From an uncultured archaeon (GTDB taxonomy: Archaea; Thermoplasmatota; Poseidoniia; MGIII; CG-Epi1), in assembly GCA_964389465.1 (NCBI GenBank), contig CAYMDK010000003.1, positions 4,148 through 68,147 on the forward strand: 64,000 nucleotides of DNA, in the 5' to 3' direction. Below the pieces are notes generated by a model, which was not told where the DNA came from, did not search any database, and saw only the letters and a program-made list of their open reading frames with translations. Below are positions 24-31,185 of the stretch, in pieces. Every line of letters begins with the position of its first letter. Position 1 is the first letter of the stretch. The position numbers were made by a program, and so were the translations under genes.

Positions 24-560
24 CTATTCCCGCCGCCGGCGCCACGCCTTGCGCCGCTTGCGCTCGGCGAGCCGCCGGATGGTCGCCTCGGTCTCGCGCA
101 CCGGGATGATGAGCGGCAGAACCGCGATGACGCTGCCGAGCAGCAGCATCCCCAGCGCGGCGGCGAAGCGCGCCTGTATCAGCCACTCCAGGAAGACCGC
201 GACGCAGCCGGTGGCGAGTATCATCGTCGCCCAGGTCAGCCGCCGGTAGGCGTTCTCGCCGATGCCCCACTCGGGAGCGTCAATCGGCGTCTCGATGGCG
301 ATATCGGCCGGCGGCGGCTCGACCGCCGGCGGCGGCCACGCGCGCAGCACGACCCAGGTCAGCAGCGCGCCGAGCAGGATGAACGACACCTGCCCGAAGC
401 CGGGGTCACCGGTGCGGGTGGCGAGCCCGGCCAGCCCCAGCATCAGCAGCCAGGTCGCGGCGACGATGGAGTAGCGCAGTCGCATGTTTTCCGGCGGCGC
501 GGCGGGTGGGCTGGTGCTTTCGTCCGGCTCGCCGGCGTTGTCGCCGTCGCCGTCGGGCAT
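24..560 (-). CDS. Integral membrane protein (about 4 TM helices), last gene of the Rieske/cyt b operon
   Basis: ORF 24..647 trimmed to the ATG at 558-560, 4 nt downstream of the stop (565-567) of the preceding ferredoxin gene. Hydrophobic segments include IVAATWLLMLGLAGLA, VSFILLGALLTWVVL, ILATGCVAVFLEWL and LGMLLLGSVIAVLPLII. No family recognised. Confidence 0.5.
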   Translation of the reverse strand: MPDGDGDNAGEPDESTSPPAAPPENMRLRYSIVAATWLLMLGLAGLATRTGDPGFGQVSFILLGALLTWVVLRAWPPPAVEPPPADIAIETPIDAPEWGIGENAYRRLTWATMILATGCVAVFLEWLIQARFAAALGMLLLGSVIAVLPLIIPVRETEATIRRLAERKRRKAWRRRRE

Positions 561-564
561 GCGC

Positions 565-1413
565 TTACGCCCGTGCTTCCATCGTGATGGCTTCCACGGG
601 GCAGGCGAAGACGCAGAGCGTGCAGCCGGTGCAGGTATCTTCGACAATCAGCGCTTTCTTCGATTCGAACGCGTCGGTGCGTGTTTCGAGTTCCCACTCA
701 ATCATGTCAATCGATGCGAAGTTGCAGAAATAGACGCACTGCGTGCAGCCGATGCACTTGTCATTGTGCACCAGTGCGATGAATTCCTTGCCGCGCGAGA
801 GCGAGTCGAGCGTCTCCTTGCGGATTTCCTTGAAGAGCGGCTTCGCCTTTGCCATGCCGGTATCGGGCAGCTCCAGTCCCTCGAGCGACGCCTTCATGCG
901 CTTGTGCCACACGTCGGGTTTCGGCTCCCACGCTGGCGCCTCGACTGCCGGTTCGGTCGCAACGGCAGCGGCGGCTTCGGCCGGGGCTTCGCCCTCCATG
1001 GCGGCCGCTTCCGCGATTGCCGGGGCGGGCGCGGCATCCGCGCCCGCCATTGCCGCCTCGACGTCGCCCGGGTCGGTAATCAGTACCGCGTCGACCGGGC
1101 AGACCTCCTCGCAGGCGCGGCAGACGATGCAGTCGGGCTCGCGCGGCATGAACGGCTTGCGCTCGGACGCGGCGTGGCCGGGAGAATCAATCCACTCGTA
1201 GACGTCGACCGGGCAGGCGTCGATGCACGCCCCGTCGGCGATGCACATGTCGAAATCGACGCCGACAACGGTGCCCCAGATGCCGAGCTTGCCCGAGTCG
1301 AGGCCGCCGTAGGTGCCGTCCTGCGTCCAGATTTGTACCGGCTCGCTGTCGCCGTCGTGGGTCGCGGCCTGCTTCCAGGCGGAGAGGTATTGTCGGTCGA
1401 TGCCAGCAGCCAT
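565..1413 (-). CDS. Ferredoxin fusion: Sulfolobus/Thermoplasma-type dicluster ferredoxin, Ala/Glu-rich linker, second 2x[4Fe-4S] domain
   Basis: The N-terminal half (LGIWGTVVGVDFDMCIADGACIDACPVDVYEWIDSPGHAASERKP...DCIVCRACEEVCPVDAV) closely matches my memory of the Sulfolobus zinc-ferredoxin core; CxxDxxC suggests a 3Fe-4S site. The C-terminal half has CIGCTQCVYFC and CTGCTLCVFACP. Start ATG 1411-1413 overlaps the upstream stop (ATGA). Confidence 0.8.
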   Translation of the reverse strand: MAAGIDRQYLSAWKQAATHDGDSEPVQIWTQDGTYGGLDSGKLGIWGTVVGVDFDMCIADGACIDACPVDVYEWIDSPGHAASERKPFMPREPDCIVCRACEEVCPVDAVLITDPGDVEAAMAGADAAPAPAIAEAAAMEGEAPAEAAAAVATEPAVEAPAWEPKPDVWHKRMKASLEGLELPDTGMAKAKPLFKEIRKETLDSLSRGKEFIALVHNDKCIGCTQCVYFCNFASIDMIEWELETRTDAFESKKALIVEDTCTGCTLCVFACPVEAITMEARA

Positions 1414-2297
1414 CAGGCGGCTTCCTCGACAAGGCAGGCGGAGAGGAACTGCATCAGGTCCAGCATCTCGAACGAGTGGTTGTGTTCGCCGGGGTCCATG
1501 CGCTCCTCGTTGAGCAGGCACTGCATGTGCATGTAGCACTTGGGACAGCCGCCCAGCATCACCTGGATTTCGGCGTCGGTGCCCTGGTCCAGCCGTTTCT
1601 TGCGCACCGCCTTGGTCGCGTCGTTGCAGTACATCATCGACGAGACGCCGCAGCAGAGCGCCTTCTCGCGGCTGTTCTCCAGCTCGACCATCTCGGCGCC
1701 GTCCACCAACTGGATAAGGTCGCGCGGCGCGTCATATTCGCCCATCATGCGGCCGAGCCGGCACGGGTCGTGGAAGCTGACGCGCACCGGTTCGGGTGAC
1801 TTGAACTTGAGACCGCGCCCGCGCAGAGTCTGCGTGATGTGCTCGACCTGGATGCCTTGGCCGGGCAGGTCGTAGTCGACCGCGAAGGTGCGGTAGCCTT
1901 CGGCGCAGGTGACGACGAGGGTGCGGATGCCGCTCTCCTGCATGCGGCGCAGGTTGTGCGCCTTCAGCTCGTCAAAGACCTCGAGCTGTCCTTGCCAGAG
2001 CTGGTCGTGCCCGCAGCACTTGAACGAGTTCATGTCGAGAATCAGCGGGTCGATGCCGGCGGCGTTCATCAGTTTGATAGCCGCCGCCGCAATCGAGGCG
2101 TGGTCGGCATCGCCTTTGTTCAGGTGCGAGAACTTGACTTCGACGTCCATGAAGTCGACGCAGCCGGGGAAGTAGCCGTATTCGTGCTGCCGCTCGGGCT
2201 GCCACGGCGCTTCGTCGGGCGTGTTGGCGTCGTTGATTATCATGCGCTCGAAGAGCGGGTGCGGAATGGTGCGGGCGTAGGGTTTGGTGCGACTCAT
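1413..2297 (-). CDS. HdrB-like protein with two CCG (Cys-rich) domains
   Basis: Two CCG-type motifs (PGCVDF...FKCCGHDQ and HDPCRLG...ALCCGVSS...GGCPKCYMHMQC), as in HdrB, SdhE-type, GlpC and LutA proteins. ORF 1413..2405 trimmed to ATG 2295-2297, which overlaps the upstream stop (ATGA). Confidence 0.8.
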   Translation of the reverse strand: MSRTKPYARTIPHPLFERMIINDANTPDEAPWQPERQHEYGYFPGCVDFMDVEVKFSHLNKGDADHASIAAAAIKLMNAAGIDPLILDMNSFKCCGHDQLWQGQLEVFDELKAHNLRRMQESGIRTLVVTCAEGYRTFAVDYDLPGQGIQVEHITQTLRGRGLKFKSPEPVRVSFHDPCRLGRMMGEYDAPRDLIQLVDGAEMVELENSREKALCCGVSSMMYCNDATKAVRKKRLDQGTDAEIQVMLGGCPKCYMHMQCLLNEERMDPGEHNHSFEMLDLMQFLSACLVEEAA

Positions 2298-3355
2298 GTT
2301 GGGGCTCCTTGCAGCGCAATTGCGCGTTGCTCGAGGACGTAATCTACGTATTCGATATTTTGCGGGCAGATGGCGGTGCACATGCCGCAGGTGATGCACG
2401 ACCACATCGCGACGCCGTCGTGCTCGTTCTGGAAAGTGTTGAAGATGATGTTCAGCTCCTCCTCACCCTCGTTGGTGCGCACCGGGCAGATGTCGTCGCA
2501 GAGGCCGCACTGGTAGCAGCGGTTGAGCTTGAACTCGTAGATGCGCTGCGTGCGGCGGCTGGTAATCCCGTTGCGGTACAGGTCGAAGCGCTCCTCATCA
2601 CTCTGCGGGCGGGCGCCCTCGGCGCGCCGCCGGTCGAGCCAGAGGTAGGTCAGTCCGGCGCACGCGAGTGGCCCCCATAGCGTCACCTGCGCCAGCACGT
2701 CGGTCGTGACGACCGGGTAATAAAGCGCGATGTTGGCGTTGATGGAGTAGATGGAAAGCATCACGACGAAGGCGAGCCCCCAGACGCCAATCGAGGCGCG
2801 GACGGGGTCCTCGATGGGGCGCCGCGCGTGGCCGGAGTTGAGGACGTCCATCATTGAGTCCTTCGGCCCGGGGTCAATCAGGTACCCCAGTGCCCGGTCG
2901 ATGAACGGGACCGCGACGACCATGCCGACAATCATCCCCTGCACCAGCGTCCCCCACACCTTGGCGGTCATCAGGAAGAAATGGTAACCGAAAATAGTGA
3001 ACTCGATGTCCCACGCCACCTTCAGGCAGCCAAACGCCCAGAGCAGGTACCAGTCCGGCAGCGGTGGCGGGAAGGCGGTCGCGGCGGCCGGGTCGGCCGC
3101 CCGGTGCAATGGCGGTGGAATGAACGCCGCCAGGAAGAAGAGGATGGATGTAACGTATAGCGTCAGCACGCTGTCGCGTATCAATTCGTGGGGGTAGAGC
3201 GGCTCGCCCTTGGCGTGCGACGCCTCGAGTACCGAGTGCGCCTGCCGCGGCGTCTCACCCGTAAATTCGGTCTTGCGCCCGATGCGCTCGGCAGCATCCT
3301 CCGCCTGCCGCTCCTGCTGGTATTCACCAATCAGATTCCCGGTGTCGTCGTCCAT
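2294..3355 (-). CDS. Cytochrome b C-terminal (subunit IV-like) membrane domain fused to an HdrC-like 2x[4Fe-4S] domain
   Basis: Has the PDWYLLWAF (PEWY-type Qo-site) motif and four predicted TM helices. The C-terminus carries CYQCGLCDDICP and CITCGMCTAICP. ORF 2294..3586 trimmed to ATG 3353-3355, overlapping the cyt b stop (ATGA). Confidence 0.8.
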   Translation of the reverse strand: MDDDTGNLIGEYQQERQAEDAAERIGRKTEFTGETPRQAHSVLEASHAKGEPLYPHELIRDSVLTLYVTSILFFLAAFIPPPLHRAADPAAATAFPPPLPDWYLLWAFGCLKVAWDIEFTIFGYHFFLMTAKVWGTLVQGMIVGMVVAVPFIDRALGYLIDPGPKDSMMDVLNSGHARRPIEDPVRASIGVWGLAFVVMLSIYSINANIALYYPVVTTDVLAQVTLWGPLACAGLTYLWLDRRRAEGARPQSDEERFDLYRNGITSRRTQRIYEFKLNRCYQCGLCDDICPVRTNEGEEELNIIFNTFQNEHDGVAMWSCITCGMCTAICPQNIEYVDYVLEQRAIALQGAPT

Positions 3356-4302
3356 CAGTGCGGCTCCGCCTCCCCCTGTATCCAGACCAGCGCCATGTGC
3401 AGCACCATCAGCGCGATTCCCACGACGGGCAGCACGAAGACGTGCAGCCAGTACATTCGCAGCACGGTCGTGCCGGTAAGCTGCGTCCCGCCGAAGACGA
3501 GTTGCGCCATCGGCGGCCCCATCGCCGGGATGGAGGTCGCCATCTCGAGCCCGATTGACCCGGCGGCAAAGCCCAGTTCGTCCCACGGCAGCAGGTAGCC
3601 GGTGTAGCCGAAGAAAATAGTCACCATCAGCAGGATGGAGCCGAGTATCCAGTTCAGCTCACGGGGATTACGGTAGGCGCCGACGAAGTAGACCCGCATC
3701 ATGTGCAGGAATACCGCCGCGACCATGAAGTGCGCCGCCCAGTGGTGCACCGCGCGCATGATGTAGCCGAAAGTGACTTCGGTCATGATGAGTTCCATCG
3801 ACTCGTATGCCCCAGAGGTCATCTCGCCGGTGACGGGGTCCTCGACGAAATCGCCGTCAGGGACGTAGTAAAAACCGAGATAGATGCCGGTAATGGTCAG
3901 GATGATGAACGCCAGGAACGAAAGCCCGCCGAGGCAGTAGAAGGGATACCAGTACCAGACCGCCTTGACGTTGTAGCGCTCGGTGTGCGACTGCGGGAAG
4001 GTGCGGCCGCTCGACGGTAGCAGCGTGAAGACCACCGAGTAGTACTCACGCCGTGCCAGGCTGGCGTAGCGGTGCAGCGCGAACCGCTCGTCGAGCCAGC
4101 TCCAGGTCGACAGCAGCACCTGCGGCAGAGCCCCGGTCGCCCACAGGAACGCGAAGCCGACCACTGCGCCGACCAGCGAAAGGAAAATCAGCAGGAAGGT
4201 GTAATCGCGCATGAACTCCTCCAGCAGTGGCGTCTCGGCGCGGGCACTCCCGGCCAGCGCCAGCAGCGCGAGGGCGGTTGCAGCCGCTATTGTCGTTCTC
4301 AT
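3355..4302 (-). CDS. Cytochrome b6-type (N-terminal half) dihaem cytochrome b with an extra N-terminal two-helix extension
   Basis: Contains RAVHHWAAHFMVAAVFLHMMRVYF and RMYWLHVFVLPVVGIALMVLHM, i.e. two His pairs with b6/Bacillus-type 14-residue spacing in helix D. Also GYLLPWDELGFAAG. Start ATG 4300-4302 overlaps the Rieske stop (ATGA). Confidence 0.85.
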   Translation of the reverse strand: MRTTIAAATALALLALAGSARAETPLLEEFMRDYTFLLIFLSLVGAVVGFAFLWATGALPQVLLSTWSWLDERFALHRYASLARREYYSVVFTLLPSSGRTFPQSHTERYNVKAVWYWYPFYCLGGLSFLAFIILTITGIYLGFYYVPDGDFVEDPVTGEMTSGAYESMELIMTEVTFGYIMRAVHHWAAHFMVAAVFLHMMRVYFVGAYRNPRELNWILGSILLMVTIFFGYTGYLLPWDELGFAAGSIGLEMATSIPAMGPPMAQLVFGGTQLTGTTVLRMYWLHVFVLPVVGIALMVLHMALVWIQGEAEPH

Positions 4303-4976
4303 CCCTGTCCGCAGTATTTCAGCCACTCCAGTTTATCAGTTCGCCCGACCAGTCCGCCGTCGCGCTCGATGACTGGCACAATCGGCAGCCCGTAGGGCGC
4401 CGGCCCCTCGACCAGCTCGGCGACCATCACCTGCCGCCCCAGCTCGTCGGTGTCCTCGATAATCGTGAGAGGGTCGAAGCGGCTCAGGTGGCAGGGGCAG
4501 AGGAACATGGTCTCGTAGGCCGCTCCGCTGAGGCTGCTGACTCCCTCTTCCATAAAGACCGGCTTGCAGCAGAGGTGCGGGCACTTGTAGGTGTGGTACG
4601 CCATCATCATCGCATTGCCGCCATCATCGGGGATACCCCATTCGGCCATTGCCTCCTCGGCCGGCAGCTTGACCAGCGTCAGTACCACCTCGCAGCTTCC
4701 CAGCTCCTGCTCCAGCTCCTCCGGCGCCCAGGTCACCATCGCCGACTGGTTGAGCGCAAAATCCTCCTTGCGTGCGACCTTGCCCGCCAGCGGCTCGTAC
4801 CAGCTGCCCGGCTCCCGCCGCTTGTAGAGCAGCGTGTCGTACGCTGCCTCGGGGTCGCAGCGGATGACGGGCGGCGGCAGCAGAGTCATCAGCGCCGGCA
4901 CCGAGAGCGCGCCGGTTATGCCACCCCCGGCGAGCGTCAGGGCGCCCTTCAGGAAATCGCGTCGCGTTACCGTCAT
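4299..4976 (-). CDS. Rieske [2Fe-2S] iron-sulfur protein with twin-arginine signal
   Basis: N-terminal MTVTRRDFLKGALTLAGGG is a Tat motif. Cluster boxes are CPHLCC and CPCHLSRF. Confidence 0.85.
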   Translation of the reverse strand: MTVTRRDFLKGALTLAGGGITGALSVPALMTLLPPPVIRCDPEAAYDTLLYKRREPGSWYEPLAGKVARKEDFALNQSAMVTWAPEELEQELGSCEVVLTLVKLPAEEAMAEWGIPDDGGNAMMMAYHTYKCPHLCCKPVFMEEGVSSLSGAAYETMFLCPCHLSRFDPLTIIEDTDELGRQVMVAELVEGPAPYGLPIVPVIERDGGLVGRTDKLEWLKYCGQG

Positions 4977-4977
4977 C

Positions 4978-5313
4978 TCACCGCTCCAGCCGCGGCACGA
5001 CCTTGTCGCGGCGGCGCTTGGTTTCGAGGACGTCGGGCAGGAAGCTGCGGCGGTAGAGGTCGAGCATCAGCCCGAACGTCAGCATCGCCATCCCGATGAT
5101 GAATGAGAGGAAAGTCTGGTCCCATCCCTCAATCAGCCCGAAGATGAAGAGCGCGTCGTAGAGTAGCTGCACCACCATCAGCAGCATGATAATCGCGAAA
5201 ATCGAGAGCTGTTCCGGTGCCGGTGTCTCGTGCCGGATTGCGCCGAGCTGCTCGTCACCACGGGTGCCGAGCAGCTTCTGCGCGTCCGCCTGCGTCAGCT
5301 CACCGCGAGCCAC
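4978..5313 (-). CDS. Small two-TM membrane protein (accessory subunit candidate); start uncertain
   Basis: ORF 4978..5409 begins with TTG and would overlap the upstream gene by 80 nt. An in-frame GTG at 5311-5313 lies 16 nt after the upstream stop (5330-5332). TM segments are LSIFAIIMLLMVVQLLYDALFIFGL and FLSFIIGMAMLTFGLMLDL. Confidence 0.4.
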   Translation of the reverse strand: MARGELTQADAQKLLGTRGDEQLGAIRHETPAPEQLSIFAIIMLLMVVQLLYDALFIFGLIEGWDQTFLSFIIGMAMLTFGLMLDLYRRSFLPDVLETKRRRDKVVPRLER

Positions 5314-5329
5314 CTGCTCGAGGATTTCG

Positions 5330-6025
5330 TTAACCTCGGTAATTGGCGCTCCCCCCTCGTAGTACGATGTACGCCAGCAGCACGAAGACCAGCGTGATGG
5401 CGATGCCAATCAGGCCAATCCAGTACTGCTTCAGGCTGACCCCAAGCTCGTGGATGCCCGCTTCGTCCTCCAGCGCCTGCGGCGTCCCGAGCGAGACCGC
5501 CACCAGCCGGGTCCACCCGTCGCCGGCGTCGTTGCCCTTCTCGCCGTTGACGACGTTGAAATAGAGGGTCAGCACCACGTCGCCGCTGCCCTCGTCGGGC
5601 GCGGTCCACGCCACTGTCCAGTTGCGCTGGTCGTTCGAGTCAGCGTTGTGCGAGAGCAGGCGGCCGCCGTCGCCGGTCCAGAAACCGTCGCCGCCGGCGA
5701 AGCTGCCGTTGGTGACGCGCAGCAGGAAGCCGCCCGCTGCCACCGGGTCGGCAGCGTCGGTGACGCCGGAATCGGCGATGGCGAGGCTCAGGTTGTAGGT
5801 CATCCCGGGCTCGTAGCGCGCCGGGAAGCCCTCAAGCGACCAGAGGCCGGTCTCGCTCTGGTCGACGTTGTGACAGCTGCAGCCGTTCAGCATCACGTCG
5901 GCGGCCCAGTCCTCGCCGCCAGTGTCGCCGCCTCCGGAATACCCGAATGCGCTTCCGCCCGTCAGGAGTGCGGCTGAAAGCAGTGCGAAAATCAGTCCGA
6001 AATCACGCCTTTTTCGAAGAGCCAA
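5330..6025 (-). CDS. Signal-peptide plus C-terminal-anchor protein with a single CxxCH motif (candidate monohaem c-type cytochrome, cyt f/c1 analogue)
   Basis: TTG start. N-terminal ALRKRRDFGLIFALLSAALLTGGSAFG, then NGCSCHNV, then a Gly/Asp/Thr/Val-rich region (probably a beta-sandwich), then the C-terminal TM YWIGLIGIAITLVFVLLAYIVL. First gene of the Rieske/cyt b operon. Confidence 0.6.
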   Translation of the reverse strand: MALRKRRDFGLIFALLSAALLTGGSAFGYSGGGDTGGEDWAADVMLNGCSCHNVDQSETGLWSLEGFPARYEPGMTYNLSLAIADSGVTDAADPVAAGGFLLRVTNGSFAGGDGFWTGDGGRLLSHNADSNDQRNWTVAWTAPDEGSGDVVLTLYFNVVNGEKGNDAGDGWTRLVAVSLGTPQALEDEAGIHELGVSLKQYWIGLIGIAITLVFVLLAYIVLRGGSANYRG

Positions 6026-6121: not shown

Positions 6122-7717
6122 ATGGGCCGGCCTCTCCCCCGGGTTGCGGGCGCACTCCTAGTCGCGGTGGCGCTGCTGTTGCGCTGGCCCCTGACGCCGC
6201 GACCAACCGGCAGCGACAGCTTCGAGTATTTCGTGCAGGTCGCGTCGCTACGTGATGCCGGAGCGATGGAGTGGCTACTCCATCCCGCGGCGTATTTCGG
6301 GCTCTACCCCGGCACATCCCCGTCAGGCCATCTGGTGGTGACCGCCGCGTTCGAGGAGGTGACGGGGCTCGGCTTCGAGGAGTCGTCGCTGCTGCTTTCG
6401 CTCGCCATCTCACTGCTCGGCGTCGCCGGGATGTGGCTGCTGGCGGGCGAGCTGGGCGTCTCGCCCGCAGCGCGCTGGCTGGCGGCGCTCTCGTTCGCGG
6501 TCGCGCCGCGCTTCATCACTTTCGCGCTCTGGCGGCTTTCGCTGCGCTATCTGATGGTGATGCTGCTGCCGCTCTTCCTCTGGGCGCTGCTGCGCAGCCA
6601 GCATCGCCGCTACGGCCGCCATCCGGCACGGCTCATCGCGCTGGGGCTCGCGCTGGGGCTGGCGCTGCCGGCGGTCCACCGTATGGGGCTGCTGCTGCCG
6701 GGCTTCCTGCTGGCGTTCGCGCTCGCGGCGGCGCTCAGCCGCTGGCAGGCGGGCGCGCTCGACCGCGAGCGCGCAGCGCGGCAGGGGGTCGCATTCTGCG
6801 CCGGGCTCGGACTCTACCTCGCCTACCTCTCCTACCTCGGCGGCACGCTCTACGCCCCGTCGGAGGGACTCTTCAGCGTCTACCTTTTTGAGGGCGAAAC
6901 GCTGCCGGTGCGGTTCGCCAACCTCGCGGTGCATTATGGGCTGCTCGGCGGGCCGCTGCTGCTGCTGGCGCTGCTCGGTGCGGGCGGCACACTCCAGCAG
7001 GGGCGCCCGGCGCTGGCGACATGGCTGGCGCTGGCGTGGCTGGCGCTCGGCGCCTACGTCATCCTCGACCGGATTTACCTCGTCTACCTGCTACTGGTCG
7101 GGATGTTGCTACTGGTCGGACCGGGCGCCGAGATGCTGCTGCGTGAGCTGCCATCCCGTCGTGGCCGAGCGGCGCTGGTGGCGGCGCTATTCGTGCTGTC
7201 GGGAGTCTCGGCCGCGGTCGATCTGCGCGAGCGCATTGACCACATGGAGCGGCCGGAGACTGGCTACAGCTACCACGTGCGCGAGCCGACCATTGCCGCC
7301 GCATTCTGGGGTAGCGCGCACGCCGACGGCGAACTCTTCGAGGCGAACGACATCAAGCGCACGCGGAGGGCCGATGCCTACTCCGGGCTAATCGCGACGC
7401 GCGACGCGGATGCACTGGCACAGGGCGTAATCGACCCGGCCGCGATGGAACTGGAATACCTCGGCTGGCGCGAACTCTACTTCGAGACGCTGGACCATCT
7501 CTGGACGTGGGAAAACCGGGGCGAATTCCACGAAAACATCTCGGCTGACCGCAGCCTCTCGCTGGTGAACCTTGCCTTTCCCGAGGCAGTCGGCAGTGCC
7601 AGCATTCCCGAGTCCATCGTTGGCAGCACCCACTACCGCTGGCTCGACTGGTTCTGCTATCGCACCTACGCCAGCAACGAGCTCGCTTTCTACTGGAGTT
7701 ACGGCTACGCGGTGTGA
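6122..7717 (+). CDS. Polytopic membrane protein with a C-terminal soluble domain (possible GT-C-type glycosyltransferase)
   Basis: 531-aa ORF with an ATG start and more than 10 hydrophobic helices, followed by a roughly 170-aa hydrophilic tail. Architecture resembles ArnT/PMT-like enzymes, but no diagnostic motif was confirmed. Confidence 0.5.
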   Translation: MGRPLPRVAGALLVAVALLLRWPLTPRPTGSDSFEYFVQVASLRDAGAMEWLLHPAAYFGLYPGTSPSGHLVVTAAFEEVTGLGFEESSLLLSLAISLLGVAGMWLLAGELGVSPAARWLAALSFAVAPRFITFALWRLSLRYLMVMLLPLFLWALLRSQHRRYGRHPARLIALGLALGLALPAVHRMGLLLPGFLLAFALAAALSRWQAGALDRERAARQGVAFCAGLGLYLAYLSYLGGTLYAPSEGLFSVYLFEGETLPVRFANLAVHYGLLGGPLLLLALLGAGGTLQQGRPALATWLALAWLALGAYVILDRIYLVYLLLVGMLLLVGPGAEMLLRELPSRRGRAALVAALFVLSGVSAAVDLRERIDHMERPETGYSYHVREPTIAAAFWGSAHADGELFEANDIKRTRRADAYSGLIATRDADALAQGVIDPAAMELEYLGWRELYFETLDHLWTWENRGEFHENISADRSLSLVNLAFPEAVGSASIPESIVGSTHYRWLDWFCYRTYASNELAFYWSYGYAV

Positions 7718-7757: not shown

Positions 7758-8210
7758 ATGGCACGAATCTATGCCCGACGGAAAGGCCGTTCCGGCTCGA
7801 GCGCGCTGCCCCGCAGCGAGCACCCCGCCTGGTCCCCGAAACCGAAGGAGGTTGAGGAGCTAGTGGGCAAGCTCTCCAAGGAGGGGCTCTCAACGGCCGA
7901 AATCGGCATCCGGCTGCGCGACTCGCACGGCATCCCGAGCGTCAAGCTGGCGACCGGCAAGGCGGTCGCGGCCGTGGTGCGCGACGCCGATATGGCACCG
8001 GACCTCCCCGAGGACCTGACGAACCTGATGCGCAAGGCGGTGCGACTGGGCGAGCATCTCGAGGCCAACCGCAAGGACGTCCACAACCGGCGGGCGCTTC
8101 AGCTCACCGAGTCAAAGATACTGCGGCTGATGCGCTATTACAAGCGCAACAGCGTGTTGCCGGATGACTGGAAATACACCCTCGCCAACGCCAAGCTGCT
8201 GGTCGGGTGA
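7758..8210 (+). CDS. rps15: 30S ribosomal protein S15 (uS15)
   Basis: MARIYARRKGRSGS...IRLRDSHGIPSV...LQLTESKILRLMRYYK is the typical archaeal S15/S13e sequence. The internal ATG of ORF 7572..8210 is in frame. Confidence 0.95.
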   Translation: MARIYARRKGRSGSSALPRSEHPAWSPKPKEVEELVGKLSKEGLSTAEIGIRLRDSHGIPSVKLATGKAVAAVVRDADMAPDLPEDLTNLMRKAVRLGEHLEANRKDVHNRRALQLTESKILRLMRYYKRNSVLPDDWKYTLANAKLLVG

Positions 8211-12758: not shown

Positions 12759-15035
12759 ATGGGAGCTGCCGGTGACTCGATTGACACGGAATCCGACCCT
12801 CTCGGTATGCTATCGCCGACTGAGGAAACGGTTGACGAGAGTCAGCTTTCATGGCGTGAAAAGCGGCGCCTGCGCAAGGAACGCAAGCAGCAGGAGAAAG
12901 CCCGCAAGGCGGCCGAGAAGGCTGGCGTCATCCACGACCTTGTCATGGACGACATCGAGCTGGGCGAGGATTTTGAGGAACTCGACACCTACCCCGTAAG
13001 GCCACCATTCTCCTACGTCCGCATCCTGTTCGACAAGCGTGATTATTCTCGCTTCTATTATGTCGTCGAACCCAAGGCGTCCGAACAGGAGCAGCAGGAC
13101 CTGCAGACCATCCAGGATGTGCTCCAGCGGGCGCTGAATATCAGCCGCGAAACCATCGAAGAGGGGCAGGACGAGTTCCTGCATCAGGCGGTTGACGACA
13201 TCCTCGACGCGTACCGGCTTCCGAGCCGCAAGAGCAACCGCGAGAAAATCCACTACTACATCGAGCGTGACCTGGTGGGCTACGGCAAGATTGACACCAT
13301 GATGCACGACCCGAACATCGAGGACGTTTCCTGTGACGGCCCCAATGTAGAGATATTCGTCTACCACCGGCGTTTCGAATCGCTACGCACCAACGTCCTC
13401 TGGCCCGACGAGTTCGAACTGGAGCGATACATCATCCGCATGGCGCAGCGGTGCGGGAAGCACATATCGATTGCCGAGCCGTTGCTGGACGCGACACTGA
13501 TGGACGGTTCACGTATCGTCATGACGCTGGGCCGTGAGGTCTCTACCAAGGGTTCAACCTTCACCATCCGGCGCTTCCGTGACGAACCGTTCACGCCGGT
13601 TGACCTGCTCGAGTTCAAGACTTTCTCTTCCATGCAGATTGCGTTCTTCTGGCTCGCGATGCAGTACGGCATGTCAATGCTTTTTGTCGGTGGTACTGCC
13701 TCTGGCAAAACTACCTCGCTCAACGCCTGCTCGCTCTTCCTGCCGTGGCAGCACAAGATTGTGAGCATTGAGGAAACGCGCGAGCTGAACCTGCCGCACC
13801 CCAACTGGATTCCCGGCTGTACCCGCGAGGGTTTCGGCGGCGAGTCCGCCATGGCGGGCGTCAAGGCGCCGGGGGTGGTCGATATGTACGACCTGCTGCG
13901 GGCAGCGCTGCGTGAGCGGCCGGAATACATCATTGTAGGGGAAATCCGTGGTGCCGAGGCGTACGTGCTGTTCCAGGCCATGGCGACGGGGCACACCACC
14001 TATTCCACCTTCCACGCCGACTCGATCCAGAGCCTGGTCCACCGGCTGGAGAACAAGCCGATTGAGATTCCGCGCGTGCTGATTCCGGCGCTCGACGCGA
14101 TTTCGATCCAGATCCAGACCCGCGTTGGCGGCAAGCGCGTGCGGCGGGGCAAGAACATCGTCGAGATTATCGGCATCGACCCCCACTCGCACGAGCTGCT
14201 GACCAACGAGGCGTTCCGCTGGGACAACTCGACCGATGAGTTCGTCTTCACCGGCAAATCCTATGTACTTGAGAAAATCATGATGAAGGCTAACCTGAAC
14301 CGCGTCGAAATCATGGACGAAATCAAGCGGCGGCAACTGGTCATTGAGTGGTGTCTCAAGAAGAGCATCCGTGACTTCCGCGACTTCGCCCGCGTGGTGT
14401 CCGAGTACTACGTCCACCCCGAGGACGTGATGCGCCGGGTCTACGCTGACCTGCAGGTGGGCGGCCGCAAGCGCCGCCGTAAGGTGAAGGAGCGTGACCT
14501 CGACCTGAGCGGTGCTGACGCAGCCGATGAGGGTGTCGATATCGCCGAGTTTCCGGCCGGGGTGCAGCAGAAGTTCCAGAAGCGGTTCGCCAAGGAAGAG
14601 GCGGCTCGGGCCAAGGCCGATGCCCGGGTGGCTGCTACCGAGGACGAGGGCAAGCGTGCCAAGCTGGAAGCGAAGGAAGCGGCCCGCCGCGCCAAGTCGG
14701 ACGCCTATCTCGAACGTGATATGCTGAAGGCACAAGCACGCTACGCCCCGCTGCGACAGTTGGCGCCTACTGCGGCTCACCTCGGAATCGGCGATGTTTC
14801 CAGCCTTTCCGTGCGTGAAGCGGGTCGACTGCTGAAGTCGTGTAATCGTGAGATTTCCGCTCGCACCAAGGCCGAAGCGCGGCAGGTCAAGCTCGCTTCC
14901 AGCCCGGACAAGCAGGCGAGCGCAGCAGCCAAGGAAGAGGCCCGGCAAGCCAAGGCTACGACCAAGCTGCAGGCTGAACTGGCGAAGCGCGTCGAGCGCT
15001 CGGCCAATCCGCGCTGGTGGCACCGGTGGTTCTAA
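12759..15035 (+). CDS. Type II/IV secretion (FlaI/ArlI/PilB-family) ATPase with about 200-aa Lys/Ala/Glu-rich C-terminal extension
   Basis: Walker A GGTASGKTTSLNA, plus IIVGEIRGAEAYVLFQAMATGH and TFHADS. After about residue 560 the sequence becomes KRRRKVKERD...AKEEAARAKADARVAA...KEEARQAKATTKLQAELAKR. Confidence 0.9.
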   Translation: MGAAGDSIDTESDPLGMLSPTEETVDESQLSWREKRRLRKERKQQEKARKAAEKAGVIHDLVMDDIELGEDFEELDTYPVRPPFSYVRILFDKRDYSRFYYVVEPKASEQEQQDLQTIQDVLQRALNISRETIEEGQDEFLHQAVDDILDAYRLPSRKSNREKIHYYIERDLVGYGKIDTMMHDPNIEDVSCDGPNVEIFVYHRRFESLRTNVLWPDEFELERYIIRMAQRCGKHISIAEPLLDATLMDGSRIVMTLGREVSTKGSTFTIRRFRDEPFTPVDLLEFKTFSSMQIAFFWLAMQYGMSMLFVGGTASGKTTSLNACSLFLPWQHKIVSIEETRELNLPHPNWIPGCTREGFGGESAMAGVKAPGVVDMYDLLRAALRERPEYIIVGEIRGAEAYVLFQAMATGHTTYSTFHADSIQSLVHRLENKPIEIPRVLIPALDAISIQIQTRVGGKRVRRGKNIVEIIGIDPHSHELLTNEAFRWDNSTDEFVFTGKSYVLEKIMMKANLNRVEIMDEIKRRQLVIEWCLKKSIRDFRDFARVVSEYYVHPEDVMRRVYADLQVGGRKRRRKVKERDLDLSGADAADEGVDIAEFPAGVQQKFQKRFAKEEAARAKADARVAATEDEGKRAKLEAKEAARRAKSDAYLERDMLKAQARYAPLRQLAPTAAHLGIGDVSSLSVREAGRLLKSCNREISARTKAEARQVKLASSPDKQASAAAKEEARQAKATTKLQAELAKRVERSANPRWWHRWF

Positions 15036-15958
15036 GCGGATTACAGTCGCTCAGCCTGCTCCTCTTCGGCTGGCTGGGTCGCTTGCTGACCAAGGATTCC
15101 TTCAAGCTCAAGCAACAGCTCGTGAAGGCGCGCATTCCGCTGCTGCCCGAAGGCTACGTTGCCCACGCCGTAATGCAGGTTTTCGCTACTTTCATCGCTG
15201 GGCTGGTGCTGGTGTTTGCTTTCATCGCCGTTGGCGTTCCATTCCTGGCGCAGATGACTGGTCCGGACGGCGAACCGATTATTGTTTCGGAATTCATACA
15301 GGCTATCCTGGCACTGGTGCTGGTTATCGTACTACCGTTGCTGATAGCGATGGTGAACTGGCTCGAGCCCGGACTGAGAGTCAGCTCGCGCGCCAAGGAC
15401 ATGGACCGCAAGCTGCCCTTCGCCGCCAGCTACACGGCAGCGATGGCGGCGGCTAATGCAACGCCGGCGATGATTTTCAAGTCGCTCGCCCGCAGTGAGG
15501 ATATCTACGGCGAGATTTCGAAGGATGCGGCCTGGATTTACCACTCTGTTGAGTTCATGGGTCGTGACCTAGTGACGACGCTCAAGGAGAGCGTCGAACG
15601 GTCGCCCTCGGAACGGTTTGCCGAGTTCCTGCAGGGAATTGTCGGCACGCTTACCTCGGGCGGTAACCTGAAGCTCTACTTCCTGAACCGGGCAGAATAC
15701 TACGCGCAGGCCAACCGGGTGCATGTCAAGAACGTCATCCAGCAGATGGCACTCTTTGCGGAAGCGTATGTGGTGATGGCAGTGGCACTTCCAATTTTCG
15801 CGATGATTATGGCCGTGATTACCTTCTGGGTTTCCGGGTCCGGGATGAAACTGGAGGAAGAGCACCTCTACATGATGGTCTTCCTGATGTTCCCGATGAT
15901 CCAGATTTTCTTCGCCTATATTTTCCTTGCACTGAGCAATGAGGTCGCAATTGATTAA
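15017..15958 (+). CDS. Type II secretion system F-domain membrane protein (FlaJ/TadC/PilC-like, first half)
   Basis: One T2SSF-like cytoplasmic domain (KLPFAASYTAAMAAANATPAMIFKSLA...FLQGIVGTLTSGGNL) flanked by TM helices. Overlaps the ATPase gene by 19 nt. Confidence 0.75.
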   Translation: MAPVVLSGLQSLSLLLFGWLGRLLTKDSFKLKQQLVKARIPLLPEGYVAHAVMQVFATFIAGLVLVFAFIAVGVPFLAQMTGPDGEPIIVSEFIQAILALVLVIVLPLLIAMVNWLEPGLRVSSRAKDMDRKLPFAASYTAAMAAANATPAMIFKSLARSEDIYGEISKDAAWIYHSVEFMGRDLVTTLKESVERSPSERFAEFLQGIVGTLTSGGNLKLYFLNRAEYYAQANRVHVKNVIQQMALFAEAYVVMAVALPIFAMIMAVITFWVSGSGMKLEEEHLYMMVFLMFPMIQIFFAYIFLALSNEVAID

Positions 15959-17145
15959 TGGCAGCTAATCTCGAGAAACGGGTCTACCGCGATGAGCGGA
16001 CCGGCAATAAGCGGCGCTGGATGACCTACCGCCTGGCGCAGAAGTGGCTCGAGGTGAAGGGAGGCAAGACTGACGTTACGGTCTATGTCGTTGTCTTCCT
16101 CTCACTGATGATGGGCGGTGCGTTCATCGCGCTGGGGCAGTTGAACCATCAGGCCGACCTGACAACGACCGTCACCGATTTCGACGGTGACTCGCAATTC
16201 GACAATCCGGAGGCCATGAACGATGGCCCCTTCACAATTACGCCCCACATGTATGGCCTTCCCTCGATTGCCAAGAACGAGAGTCGTGACGCTGACCCGC
16301 TGATTAACGGTATTGACGAAGATGTAGAAGCTATAACCTGGTATCGATACTATCCTGAAATTTCGACCATTGACTACTACGTTTTTGCGCTGATTGCGCT
16401 GATGCTGCCTTATGGCATCTGGGGCTGGCGTGAGGACAAGCTCCGGACGCGGGTCGAGGAGAAATTCCCCGACTTCCTGCGCGACCTTGCCGAGTACTGG
16501 AAGGGTGGTCTCAGTATGACCGTTGCTATCCAGACGCTGGCGCGGGGCGAATATGGCAACCTCAACGACGAAGTACACAAGATGTCAACCCAGATTTCGT
16601 GGGGTATTTCCTTCAGTGAAGTGCTGGGGATGTTTACTGAACGGGTCCGGTCGCCCATCGTGACGCGGGCGGTCCGCATGGTCGATGAGGCCAACCGCGC
16701 GGGAGGCCGCATTTCGGACATTCTTCTCGCTGCCTCGTATGATGCCAAGGAAATCAAGGCGCTCGAGACCGAGCGAGCACAGGAAGTTACCAGCTATATG
16801 ATGGTGGTATACGTTTCGTTTCTGGTCTACCTGATTATTATCCTCGTCCTGGCCAACACTTTCGTCCCGGCGATTGCCGATTCCGCCTCTGCCACCGGCT
16901 CAGAGGGTTCGATGTCCATTGGTAATCTGCAGGTGCGCAACCTGAACGAAGTCTGGATTTCGACTATATTCCTCTACAGCATAATTGTTCAGAGCATTGG
17001 CAACGGCATGGCGGCTGGTTTCATGTCCACTGGCAAGCTCTACTCGGCGTTCAACCGTTCCTCTATGTTGCTCTTCATCGGCTGGCTGGTCTTTGAAGTG
17101 ATGGGAATCGCCACATCAGTCATCAGCCCTGGTACCATCCTCTGA
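15958..17145 (+). CDS. Type II secretion system F-domain membrane protein (FlaJ/TadC/PilC-like, second half)
   Basis: T2SSF-like domain FPDFLRDLAEYWKGGLSMTVAIQTLA...RAVRMVDEANRAGGRISDIL with C-terminal TM helices. The ATG overlaps the preceding stop. Confidence 0.75.
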   Translation: MAANLEKRVYRDERTGNKRRWMTYRLAQKWLEVKGGKTDVTVYVVVFLSLMMGGAFIALGQLNHQADLTTTVTDFDGDSQFDNPEAMNDGPFTITPHMYGLPSIAKNESRDADPLINGIDEDVEAITWYRYYPEISTIDYYVFALIALMLPYGIWGWREDKLRTRVEEKFPDFLRDLAEYWKGGLSMTVAIQTLARGEYGNLNDEVHKMSTQISWGISFSEVLGMFTERVRSPIVTRAVRMVDEANRAGGRISDILLAASYDAKEIKALETERAQEVTSYMMVVYVSFLVYLIIILVLANTFVPAIADSASATGSEGSMSIGNLQVRNLNEVWISTIFLYSIIVQSIGNGMAAGFMSTGKLYSAFNRSSMLLFIGWLVFEVMGIATSVISPGTIL

Positions 17146-18284: not shown

Positions 18285-19880
18285 TTATGCTGCGTGCTCG
18301 AGCGCCGCACGTACCAGCCCCAGATGCAGTGGCGAAGGCGCGTCGGGACGCGACTTGAACTCGGGGTGGAATTGCGATGCGATGAAGTAGGGATGGCCCT
18401 GTAATTCCAGTACCTCCATGCGGCGGCCCGAGGTGTCGCGGCCGGTGAACCGCATACCTGCCGCCTCGATGCGCTCGATGTAGTCGGGATTGACCTCGAA
18501 GCGGTGGCGGTGCCGTTCCTGGATTGAGTCGCTGCCATAAAGCCCGCTCGCGACACCCTCGTCAAGCGCCACGTCGTGGTCGCCCAGCCGCATCGTGGCG
18601 CCCATTTCGGTCACCTCGCGCTGCTCGGGCAGCAGGTCCACCACCGGGTGTGGCGAATCCGGGTCGAGTTCGCTGGAATTTGCTCCTTCCAGCCCGAGCG
18701 CGTTGCGCGCAAATTCAACGACGGCGAGCTGGAAGCCGAAGCAGACGCCGAGATAGGGCACGCGATTTTCGCGTGCCCATTCCGCCGCCATGATTTTGCC
18801 TTCGGCACCGCGGTTGCCGAAGCCGCCCGGCACGACGACGCCATTGACGCCCTCCAGCGCCGTGGCGTTCCCCGCCTCTTCGAGGTCCGGCGCCTCGAGC
18901 CAGCGGATGCGGACGCGGCAATCCTCCAGCGCGCCAGCGTAGCGCAGTGTCTCCTCGTGCGAAATGTATGAATCCTTCAGGTCGGTATACTTGCCAATCA
19001 GCGCGATTTCCACTTCGTGCGTGCCATTGCTGACGCGCTCGGCAAAGTCCTGCCACTGCGTCATGTCGGGCTCGCGCCGCTTCAGTCCCAGCCGTTCCTC
19101 GATGAGTTGCGGGAATTGCTGCTCGACAAAGTGCATCGGGACATGGTAGATGGATTCAGCGTCGGGCGCCGAAATTACGTTCTCGGGCGGAATGTCGGCG
19201 AAAAAGGCAATCTTGGCCGCGATATCTGGCTCGAGCGGGTCGGTCGAGCGGCCGACGATTACGTCGGGCCGGATGCCGAGCCCCTGCAGCTCCTTAACCG
19301 AGTGTTGCGTCGGTTTGGTTTTCTGCTCGCCAACCGCGCCAATCACCGGCACCAGCGTGGTGTGGATAAACATCACGTCCTCGTGCCCCTGCTCGCGGTG
19401 CAGCTGCCGCACCGCCTCCATGAAAGGCATGGACTCAATGTCGCCTACTGTGCCTCCTAACTCAACGAGGCAAATCTCCGCCGAGGCGCTCTCGGCCGCG
19501 CCGCGTATCGAGTCGACAATTTCACGCACGACGTGTGGGATAATCTGGACCGTCTGCCCCAGATAGTCGCCGCGGCGTTCCTTATCTATTACGGAACGGA
19601 ATACCTTCCCGGTGGTGATATTGTGCGCCGCGGTGAGGTTGCAGTTGAGGAACCGTTCATAATTCCCGAGGTCAAGGTCAACCTCGGAGCCATCGGTCAT
19701 GACGAAGACTTCGCCATGTTCGTAAGGGTTCATGGTCCCCGCGTCGCAGTTCAGGTAGGGGTCCATCTTGACCGCGGTAACGCGGTATCCGGCCCGCTGC
19801 AGCAGCACGCCAATCGAGGAGGAGGTTACGCCCTTTCCAAGCCCGGAAAGGACACCGCCAGTCACAATGATGTACTTCAT
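18285..19880 (-). CDS. pyrG: CTP synthase
   Basis: MKYIIVTGGVLSGLGKG..., full synthetase domain, and a GATase domain with GVCFGFQ and HRHRFEVN. Confidence 0.97.
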   Translation of the reverse strand: MKYIIVTGGVLSGLGKGVTSSSIGVLLQRAGYRVTAVKMDPYLNCDAGTMNPYEHGEVFVMTDGSEVDLDLGNYERFLNCNLTAAHNITTGKVFRSVIDKERRGDYLGQTVQIIPHVVREIVDSIRGAAESASAEICLVELGGTVGDIESMPFMEAVRQLHREQGHEDVMFIHTTLVPVIGAVGEQKTKPTQHSVKELQGLGIRPDVIVGRSTDPLEPDIAAKIAFFADIPPENVISAPDAESIYHVPMHFVEQQFPQLIEERLGLKRREPDMTQWQDFAERVSNGTHEVEIALIGKYTDLKDSYISHEETLRYAGALEDCRVRIRWLEAPDLEEAGNATALEGVNGVVVPGGFGNRGAEGKIMAAEWARENRVPYLGVCFGFQLAVVEFARNALGLEGANSSELDPDSPHPVVDLLPEQREVTEMGATMRLGDHDVALDEGVASGLYGSDSIQERHRHRFEVNPDYIERIEAAGMRFTGRDTSGRRMEVLELQGHPYFIASQFHPEFKSRPDAPSPLHLGLVRAALEHAA

Positions 19881-31109: not shown

Positions 31110-31185
31110 GGGCTCGTGAGGTAGTCCGGAATCCTACTGGGCTTCGGACCCAGGTACGGGGGTTCAAATCCCCCCGGGCCCGCCA
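31110..31185 (+). tRNA. tRNA-Arg (anticodon TCG), encoded CCA
   Basis: Hand-folded. Acceptor GGGCTCG/CGGGCCC (one G:U pair), anticodon stem CTGGG/CCCAG with loop CTTCGGA, T arm GGGGG-TTCAAAT-CCCCC, discriminator G, then CCA. Confidence 0.85.

Follow-up and report, generated by a model that had tools for sequence, protein, structure and literature searches.

A fusion of the C-terminal half of cytochrome b with an HdrC-like dicluster domain in a Rieske/cytochrome b operon of Marine Group III and other Thermoplasmatota

Why should the C-terminal half of a cytochrome b be continued, within one polypeptide, by a domain with motifs for two iron–sulfur (Fe-S) clusters? This question is raised by a gene in a 64,000-nucleotide stretch of DNA from an uncultured Marine Group III (MGIII) archaeon (NCBI GenBank assembly GCA_964389465.1, contig CAYMDK010000003.1, positions 4,148 to 68,147 of the forward strand). 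The whole stretch is called the window here, and positions are counted from its first letter. An earlier note, made from the letters of the DNA alone, had described the gene at 2294-3355 as a subunit-IV-like C-terminal half of cytochrome b joined to an HdrC-like dicluster domain, and our profile matches to QcrB, PetD and HdrC in the PDB, described below, bear out this description. Judged on its sequence and that of its relatives, the window gene is a genuine and selected fusion of these two parts.

The gene is a single uninterrupted open reading frame (ORF) running from an ATG at 3355 to a TGA at 2294-2296. The PDWY motif, the four hydrophobic stretches and both cluster strings quoted in the earlier note, which gave no strand, were all located in this one ORF on the minus strand. 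The length of the ORF is in itself little evidence, since the window has a G+C content of 65% and long ORFs are frequent across many of its frames. A search of 5.8 billion proteins at E<=1e-3 returned 131 homologues; among the 120 matches listed nearly all were full length (341–378 amino acids (aa), 62–95% identity), and the named source organisms of these were marine group II/III euryarchaeotes or Thermoplasmatota. When 15 of the homologues are aligned, the motif of the quinol-oxidizing (Qo) site, the full set of eight cluster cysteines and the greater part of the Fe-S domain show no variation. Because the homologues are nearly all full length and the Qo motif and cluster cysteines invariant, we take this to be a real gene and not a chance ORF. 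A further search with a distant alignment gathered at least 29 proteins. The public annotations of the fusion protein conflict with each other and include 'PreA subunit', 'ferredoxin', 'cytochrome b/c subunit' and '4Fe-4S dicluster domain-containing protein'.

In a scan of one genome per species, relatives were found in 198 species-representative genomes, and the clusters of the best 80 of these were surveyed. These 80 are almost all Thermoplasmatota with the same gene order, and comprise Marine Group II and III, Poseidoniia, soil and groundwater Thermoplasmata, metagenome-assembled genomes (MAGs) labelled Methanomassiliicoccales, one Bathyarchaeia and one 'Halobacteria' MAG. A single ORF containing PDWY and two complete cluster motifs is present in 82 of 85 loci. 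Of the other three, one is ended by the end of its contig, one (Acidobacteriota) is an unrelated Hdr-like locus and one (L050, about 1-1270) has a single in-frame stop, which lies inside an extra transmembrane insert; in none of these loci are the two halves split by a stop codon at their junction, the point on which the earlier note had suggested a check. The stop in L050 may come from a sequencing error, mark a pseudogene or reflect a real split. That two genes were accidentally read through, as an artefact of assembly or annotation, has a negligible probability and was ruled out by the single ORF in these loci, which come from independent assemblies, and by the full-length homologues. Two loci binned as bacterial, L013 (Nitrosomonadaceae) and L042 (Chloroflexota), contain a complete Poseidoniia-type cluster with about 60% aa identity to that of the window; we did not accept them as bacterial occurrences, and they are probably mis-binned archaeal contigs.

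With regard to the homology of the two halves, Pfam recognized only 4Fe-4S dicluster families in the window protein (residues 277–334), with no PF00032 match at E<0.01, and the PF00032 gathering score is exceeded by more distant family members (48.7 bits against 20.7 for P0138). A family profile built from 29 members was searched against all PDB sequences and matched actinobacterial QcrB (E=6.6e-16), with profile positions 28–205 aligned to about residues 246–433 of QcrB, that is, helices E–H, followed by Rhodobacter/Paracoccus cytochrome b (E about 3e-13) and the b6f subunit IV, PetD (E=8.5e-10). The best match of the Fe-S half was HdrC (5ODC_C, E=7.9e-10), over HdrC residues 30–116 including the helix after the second cluster, ahead of MsEMO/EtfD (9OJN, E=1.9e-8), NdhI (E=8.8e-8) and FwdF (E=2.9e-7). 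An AlphaFold model made from 15 close homologues had a predicted local distance difference test score (pLDDT) of 45 and was unusable. The model from 33 more diverse sequences reached a pLDDT of 64, with helices at 55–77, 131–160, 184–212 and 218–248, and gave seven confident Foldseek matches (probability 1.0), all to actinobacterial QcrB chains. As in HdrC, there are two CxxCxxCxxxCP motifs (C280–C290 and C320–C330) with a helical segment behind the second, and an HdrB-type partner with CCG motifs is encoded by the adjacent, overlapping gene and is fused in some relatives. Since the window protein scores under the cut-offs of the curated HdrC models TIGR03290 (37.8 bits, cut-off 160) and NF041779 (27.6 bits, cut-off 350), the dicluster domain is best described as HdrC-like rather than as an HdrC orthologue; the match to NCBIfam qmoC (1.5e-4) is likewise far under its cut-off. 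A profile of the N-terminal part aligned the family motif P-H-E-x-x-R-D with P-Y-F-I-I-K-D252 of Rhodobacter sphaeroides cytochrome b, which places R60-D61 of the window protein opposite K251-D252. Asp252, a ligand of the quinone-reducing (Qi) site of bc1, thus has its counterpart in Asp61, and this residue is kept in at least 90% of the family.

The fourth helix of the protein had been regarded in the earlier note as extra, compared with the three of b6f subunit IV, and as gained to return the chain to the cytoplasm. The return itself is supported. The number of helices ahead of the Fe-S domain is even, namely four, or eight in soil Thermoplasmata, in whose proteins helix H is separated from the Fe-S domain by an additional stretch of about 130 residues that forms four further helices in the cleanly resolved cases. 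In addition, Lys and Arg are more abundant in the inside loops than in the outside loops, the flank behind helix H is a basic 'DRRRAEGAR', and the upstream Rieske protein has a twin-arginine (Tat) signal, from which it follows that the PDWY loop lies on the outside, as in all complexes of this kind. Together, the even helix count, this flank and the Tat signal on the Rieske partner require a cytoplasmic position for the Fe-S domain. The helix is, however, not a gain. Its counterpart in the eight-helix cytochromes b is helix H (QcrB up to about 433), with which it can be aligned, and relatives without the fusion, among them a Haloarculaceae protein, have it as well. What the protein has here is the ancestral helix H of cytochrome b, and of the earlier claim of an adaptation rather than a read-through only the denial of a read-through stands. 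A 4+4 helix arrangement has already been described for the split cytochrome b of haloarchaea (Baymann et al., 2012; PMC3509893). With its four helices the window protein does not match subunit IV sensu stricto, which has three helices and its C-terminus on the p side. The features of the fusion protein and of the genes around it are collected in Table 1.

Table 1. Positions in the window of the fusion gene, its parts and the other genes of the conserved cluster
Feature	Position	Strand	Basis or remark
Fusion protein: cytochrome b helices E–H (subunit-IV-like), linker and HdrC-like 2x[4Fe-4S] domain	2294..3355	-	353 aa
n-side segment ahead of helix E, GEPLYPHELIRD (residues 50–61)	3173..3208	-	alignment and invariance
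Transmembrane helix E, VLTLYVTSILFFLAAFI (residues 63–79)	3119..3169	-	hydropathy, AlphaFold helix 55–77, PDB alignments
Qo-site motif PDWY (residues 100–103), p side	3047..3058	-	found in all 82 fused ORFs
Transmembrane helix F, WGTLVQGMIVGMVVAVPFI (residues 134–152)	2900..2956	-	hydropathy, AlphaFold, alignment
Transmembrane helix G, IGVWGLAFVVMLSIYSI (residues 189–205)	2741..2791	-	hydropathy, AlphaFold, alignment
Transmembrane helix H, VTLWGPLACAGLTYLWL (residues 224–240)	2636..2686	-	aligned with QcrB about 405–433; in unfused relatives
Basic/helical linker (residues 241–279), conserved YEFKLNR at its end	2519..2635	-	alignment, AlphaFold
First cubane-cluster motif C280-x2-C283-x2-C286-x3-C290-P, CYQCGLCDDICP (residues 280–291)	2483..2518	-	invariant cysteines
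Second cubane-cluster motif C320-x2-C323-x2-C326-x3-C330-P, CITCGMCTAICP (residues 320–331)	2363..2398	-	invariant cysteines
Helix behind second cluster, QNIEYVDYVLEQRAIAL, aligned with HdrC segment RDIAPTDVIMAMRNLAF	2312..2362	-	HdrC 30–116 covered
Exported, C-terminally anchored protein, 231 aa, choice-of-anchor V domain, invariant GCSCH; putative Rieske electron acceptor	5330..6025	-	
DUF7318 small membrane protein (start codon uncertain)	4978..5409	-	in almost every related cluster
Rieske [2Fe-2S] protein, Tat signal, 225 aa, boxes CPHLCC and CPCHLS	4299..4976	-	
b6-type cytochrome b N-terminal half, 323 aa, four haem histidines, 'FYCLGG' CxGG motif	3355..4326	-	PF00033 5e-37; NCBIfam cytochrome b6 8e-54
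HdrB-like protein, 294 aa, two CCG/non-cubane-cluster domains	1413..2297	-	Pfam CCG 1.3e-19
Polyferredoxin, 282 aa	565..1413	-	Zn-ferredoxin-like domain, linker and 2x[4Fe-4S]
Small polytopic membrane protein, final conserved cluster gene (start uncertain)	24..560	-	

The fusion gene is part of a translationally coupled minus-strand operon that is conserved across Poseidoniia and other Thermoplasmatota. The earlier note had overlooked this context, with its genes for a Rieske protein, a b6-type cytochrome b, an HdrB-like protein and a polyferredoxin. The cytochrome b and fusion genes overlap by 1 base (TGATG), the fusion and HdrB-like genes by 4 bases (ATGA) and the HdrB-like and polyferredoxin genes by 1 base. 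Both in the window and in the related loci the fusion gene adjoins a gene for a four-helix, four-histidine cytochrome b6-type protein, which in the window terminates at the b6/subunit IV split point, and a Rieske gene. The closest relative of the window cluster is in a Candidatus Thalassarchaeaceae MAG (84–99% aa identity over the cluster), and the identical eight genes are found in the same order on a 343-kb contig (L001), with proteins 32–84% identical to those of the window and about 73% for the fusion protein. The cluster is flanked by a gene for a 531-aa polytopic membrane protein (6122-7717, plus strand), whose homologue on L001 has no Pfam family on record, and by that for archaeal ribosomal protein S15 (7760-8210, plus strand). 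Since both are placed alike on the distant L001 contig, synteny reaches past the operon.

The 231-aa protein matches the choice-of-anchor V domain with 66.5 bits (cut-off 42) and has a signal peptide and a C-terminal membrane anchor; G-C49-S-C51-H52, H126 and H192 are kept in at least 92% of 36 Poseidoniia loci. CxCH is no standard haem c motif. In one locus (L077) a membrane-anchored CxxCH cytochrome c occupies the slot of this protein, and because it shares this slot the GCSCH protein is likely to be the electron acceptor of the Rieske protein. According to published descriptions, a plastocyanin-like or halocyanin copper protein stands in that slot in Angelarchaeales and haloarchaea. The Rieske protein itself has no Pfam Rieske-domain match at E<0.01, and its cluster boxes, C-P-H-L-C-C and C-P-C-H-L-S-R-F, are unusual, with the Ser present and the Tyr replaced by Phe. 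Boxes of this kind presumably go with a middle-range potential. In b6f and Firmicutes enzymes it is at the CxGG motif that haem ci is bound. Of the 80 loci, 48 retain the candidate cysteine for this haem, namely those of the window, of bathypelagic MGIII and of the variant architectures called Types B, C and D below. In 30, those of epipelagic Poseidoniia, a Ser stands in its place, which suggests that a covalent n-side haem may have been lost in this one lineage. An obligatory role of haem ci as the docking haem was ruled out by these Ser-containing loci.

The two genes downstream of the fusion gene encode further Fe-S proteins. Among curated families, the HdrB-like protein matched TfrB best (2.4e-25), followed by LdhH, TmcB and DsrK, and in a single-sequence search of the PDB its sole solved relative was 9OJN (6.9e-16), the EMO/EtfD of M. 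smegmatis. The order of an HdrC-like cubane domain and then an HdrB-like domain with CCG cysteines is that of HdrD and EMO. Across 83 HdrB-like sequences the second CCG motif (C179, C215, C216, C251 and C254) is invariant, as are C224 and C260. The first motif has C46, C94 and C131 throughout, and the fourth cysteine comes from either C95 or C134, a compensated swap: the pattern is 'CC...CAEG' in the window lineage and Type B and 'CS...CAEC' in most Poseidoniia, and in six of eight Type C sequences both cysteines are present, the other two having Val at 95. The first domain of the polyferredoxin has the motifs CxxDxxCxxxCP and CxxCxxCxxxCP and resembles the zinc ferredoxins of Thermoplasmatales (3.7e-18; 3Fe/4Fe-type). 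A linker of roughly 70 residues, rich in Ala, Glu and Pro, joins it to an invariant 2x[4Fe-4S] domain resembling RnfB, NuoI and PorD. By its domain make-up the polyferredoxin resembles a flexibly tethered ferredoxin, and it is probably the orphan 'RnfB' of Marine Group II surveys. No HdrA gene is present in the window cluster, which has the polyferredoxin instead, and HdrA-like genes were seen only in Type C relatives.

Partners of this kind could also belong to a thiol (or other substrate):quinone oxidoreductase with the cytochrome b as a mere anchor, in which the HdrB-like site would oxidize a dithiol and the polyferredoxin would be a second, independent input. TfrB-like CCG domains oxidize thiols in thiol:fumarate reductase, and HdrC forms the junction between HdrA and HdrB in HdrABC. 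We nevertheless consider this explanation unlikely, as neither a candidate thiol carrier nor a related gene was found in the conserved cluster and as non-cubane clusters can be simple relays, as in EMO.

Four architectures can be distinguished among the fused relatives. Type A, in Poseidoniia, is as in the window, and Type B, in soil Thermoplasmata, has the four additional helices ahead of the Fe-S domain. In Type C, helices E–H, the dicluster domain and both CCG domains form one chain, followed by a polyferredoxin gene or by split HdrA-like and FlpD/MvhD-like genes. The HdrB-like part is fused in this way in nine of the 82 single-ORF loci, and PF00032, dicluster and two CCG domains were found in one chain in P0121, P0125, P0128, P0130, P0131, P0137, P0138 and P0139. 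In L004 (1211-6254) and L006 (4347-9312) the triple fusion of E–H, HdrC and HdrB is followed by two HdrA-like genes and an FlpD/MvhD-like gene; in L007 one HdrA-like gene is visible before the contig ends, and in L012 the HdrA-like genes lie about 1.4 kb downstream. The hosts of this variant are some Thermoplasmata and one Bathyarchaeia MAG. In most such loci the N-terminal cytochrome b subunit carries a large extracellular extension (650–1074 aa; Big_5 in the P0130 locus), which is missing in L007 and L012. The HdrA-like and FlpD/MvhD-like genes constitute a Qmo/Hdr-like flavoprotein module on a Rieske/cytochrome b core. Type D (L069 and L077) has the fusion with neither an HdrB-like nor a polyferredoxin gene adjacent. 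This would suit a Fe-S domain that serves for redox sensing, or for structure or assembly, without net electron flux, an idea that seems to us very unlikely: in most lineages the genes for the HdrB-like protein and the polyferredoxin are conserved together with the fusion and coupled to it in translation, and the HdrB-like domain has repeatedly been fused to it, which favours an electron-transfer chain.

Unfused proteins consisting of helices E–H only, including that of Haloarculaceae, which was recovered by the family profile, end in '...YENKLSRNYYRIR' or '...NLNRRYYRLRPPK'. These ends correspond to the conserved lead-in 'YEFKLNRCYQCG' of the fused proteins, broken off at the start of the first cluster motif, and degenerate copies of the lead-in were found at the ends of the four-helix, Fe-S-less relatives P0291, P0288, P0286, P0287, P0133, P0136 and P0140. 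Because of this remnant the unfused proteins look like truncations of the fusion and not like its precursors, and truncation of the fused form may be the origin of the PetD-like subunit of haloarchaea.

What, then, could the fused domain do? The best explanation overall, which we hold with moderate confidence, is that it belongs to an HdrCB/EMO-like cytoplasmic Fe-S arm on a Rieske/cytochrome b complex, probably with inward electron flow. The core would be a quinol oxidase made up of the Rieske protein exported by the Tat route, DUF7318, the exported acceptor and a cytochrome b subunit with four helices and two haems, which may have haem ci in addition. The fusion protein would supply the other, C-terminal half of this split b6-type cytochrome b; its PDWY loop at Qo would lie on the outer side of the membrane and its Asp at Qi on the inner side. 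The fused HdrC-type domain would be the anchor and first relay of the arm on the cytoplasmic (n) side, and the arm would be completed by the HdrB-like non-cubane-cluster protein and the polyferredoxin. The sequences show the fusion itself, with its homologies, topology, operon and conservation across Thermoplasmatota; from these we infer that the arm exchanges electrons between cytoplasmic redox carriers and the n-side haem or haems. Candidate carriers are reduced ferredoxin, via the tethered ferredoxin-like domain, or a flavoprotein acting on the HdrB-like clusters, as electron-transferring flavoprotein (ETF) does on EMO/EtfD. In the inward direction low-potential cytoplasmic electrons would pass through the Fe-S clusters and haem bH/ci to menaquinone at Qi, and complex III would double as a ferredoxin (or flavoprotein):quinone reductase with quinol oxidation at Qo still running. 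The PDWY motif, which correlates with menaquinol use (PMC4122944), suggests a Qo substrate of the menaquinol type.

Electron flow inward to menaquinone is the most likely direction in our analysis for several reasons. The arm appears to be accessory to a working Q cycle, because the Qi Asp is kept and because arm-less relatives of the haloarchaeal type keep the core; a quinone at Qi would outcompete low-potential clusters for the electrons of haem bH; and the polyferredoxin resembles a tethered ferredoxin. The same [cubane]-[non-cubane] module in EMO also works inward, taking electrons from ETF to haem b and menaquinone (bioRxiv 10.64898/2026.08.18.745454). In the Angelarchaeales, ferredoxin entry has been suggested independently, from gene adjacency, for hdrD-like and rnfB-like genes beside complex III (Diamond et al., 2022; PMC9038741).

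In the opposite case of outward flow, the main rival, which we regard as credible but less likely, Qo would send one electron to the Rieske protein and oxygen and the other via the b haems and the fused clusters to a cytoplasmic acceptor, either a disulfide at the HdrB-like clusters, in a loop of the HdrDE/DsrMK type, or ferredoxin via the polyferredoxin, by a Qo bifurcation as proposed for anammox complexes. HdrDE and DsrMK are established precedents for this direction. The matches of the HdrB-like subunit to the catalytic thiol/disulfide enzymes TfrB, TmcB and DsrK, its complete and invariant five-Cys CCG motif together with C224 and C260, and the HdrA-like and MvhD-like partners of Type C relatives are all in keeping with it, and bacterial cytochromes b fused to 4Fe-4S and MvhD domains serve other complexes (Kao & Hunte, 2014; PMC4122944). 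However, with the Qi Asp conserved, a quinone of much higher potential than typical HdrC-type clusters would compete for the electrons, the hosts are described as obligate aerobic heterotrophs (PMC6336850) with no known high-flux cytoplasmic disulfide acceptor, and the core is retained where the arm is missing.

Several points weigh against our preferred explanation of an arm that feeds electrons inward. The direction of electron flow is purely inferential, and a plain ferredoxin-to-haem wire would not need an HdrB-like subunit, a type of protein whose clusters have a catalytic role in Hdr, DsrK and TfrB. Some relatives have HdrA-like and MvhD/FlpD-like genes in place of the polyferredoxin gene, a composition typical of bifurcating or confurcating Hdr and Qmo systems, which can run in either direction. 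Haem ci cannot be essential to the arm, because its candidate cysteine is so often Ser. In addition, the window protein is under every curated family cut-off (Pfam and NCBIfam), and the Fe-S domain of the AlphaFold model is of low confidence (pLDDT about 52–70) and too uncertain for a fold comparison or a cluster–haem distance. Neither ETF genes nor other obvious donors were present in the cluster or in those parts of the rest of the window that were sampled.

A more far-reaching possibility, which we put forward tentatively, is that the low-potential branch of a Rieske/cytochrome b complex is here wired to the cytoplasm. Bifurcation at Qo would then yield a low-potential reductant (reduced ferredoxin or thiols), or the complex would contain the first natural hard-wired ferredoxin-to-Qi 'FQR' pathway; either way the haloarchaeal complex III would be a truncated descendant. 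If the 'FQR' version is true, the long debate on whether b6f-type complexes act as ferredoxin:plastoquinone reductases would receive an answer from structure, and if the bifurcation version is true, low-potential reductant would be made from quinol in some of the ocean's most abundant archaea.

Elsewhere in the window we noted an archaeal type IV pilus/archaellum-type ATPase (T2SSE, PilB3_C) with a T2SSF membrane protein (12759-17145, plus strand), a CTP synthase (18285-19880, minus strand) and, as the sole RNA gene found, a tRNA-Arg(TCG) (31110-31185, plus strand).

How does this system compare with known ones? The component families are all known. The haloarchaeal halocyanin–Rieske/cytochrome b cluster (PMC3509893) is alike in the b6/subunit IV split, the four-helix second subunit with PDWY, the DUF7318 neighbour and an upstream gene for an acceptor other than cytochrome c. 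It is unlike in that its protein stops at '...NLNRRYYRLRPPK', exactly at the start of the first cluster motif of the window protein, and in that the cluster is without the Fe-S domain, the HdrB-like gene and the polyferredoxin gene; the haloarchaeal proteins are also reported to be without the CxGG cysteine (Baymann et al., 2012; PMC3509893), which the window protein has. PetD and the C-terminal half of bc1 cytochrome b and QcrB share helices E, F and G, the ef loop with the Qo motif and the n-side segment with the Qi Asp, and the gene for PetD likewise lies directly behind a b6-type gene. PetD has, however, three helices and no C-terminal domain, and QcrB and bc1 cytochrome b are unsplit and, like PetD, without Fe-S clusters.

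On the side of the Fe-S arm, EMO/EtfD (9OJN) and HdrDE likewise combine a membrane subunit with b haem, a cytoplasmic HdrC-like two-cubane domain and an HdrB-like domain, and in EMO, too, the ligand set of the distal cluster is variable. Their membrane part is a haem-binding bundle of the NarI/HdrE type, whereas that of the window protein is a haem-free, bc-type E–H half with Qo and Qi sites, the haems being on the separate b6-type subunit, and a polyferredoxin subunit is added. In QmoC, DsrMK and TmcBC a Hdr-type Fe-S module is also wired to a quinone-reactive cytochrome b; QmoC is itself a fusion of an HdrC domain with a cytochrome b, and the HdrA-like partners of Type C resemble QmoAB. These systems differ in the family of their cytochrome b, in the domain order, which is reversed in QmoC, and in their hosts, which are sulfate reducers, whereas those of the window type are aerobes without sulfate reduction.

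Two earlier descriptions come closest, and are the only prior mentions that our literature search returned. In the 'PDWF-FeS' clade a 4Fe-4S-binding domain, plus MvhD, is attached to a cytochrome b that has a Qo motif, and this was taken as evidence that a whole cytochrome b can serve other complexes (PMC4122944). The clade is confined to a few bacteria, with PDWF and no Rieske gene in the cluster, whereas the window family has PDWY, a Rieske gene in the window and related loci, and HdrB-like and polyferredoxin partners. The Angelarchaeales 'complex III-like locus', with its hdrD-like and rnfB-like genes beside cytochrome b mentioned in passing (PMC9038741), probably belongs to the same family as the window fusion (Type B, soil Thermoplasmata); its acceptor is a plastocyanin-like copper protein, unlike that in the window, and the cytochrome b–dicluster fusion, its topology and its distribution in Marine Group II/III are not described in that paper. 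Our literature search returned no description of the E–H–HdrC fusion, of its triple-fusion relatives, of its spread through Poseidoniia and other Thermoplasmatota or of its relation to the haloarchaeal PetD-like protein.

Marine Group II/III are among the most abundant planktonic archaea. Their genome surveys reported 'a cytochrome b and a Rieske protein but lack canonical bc1' and an orphan 'RnfB' (PMC6336850), and both remarks would be explained if the complex III of these archaea consists of a b6-type core and, built into it, an HdrCB/polyferredoxin arm. Such an arm is a plausible route to reoxidize the ferredoxin and flavoprotein electrons of protein and lipid catabolism. The fusion links three things that have been treated separately, namely Rieske/cytochrome b complexes, Hdr/EMO-type non-cubane-cluster modules and the split cytochrome b of haloarchaea; it offers a natural system for testing n-side electron entry into a b6-type complex and probably gives an archaeal 'complex III' an extra electron port on the cell interior.

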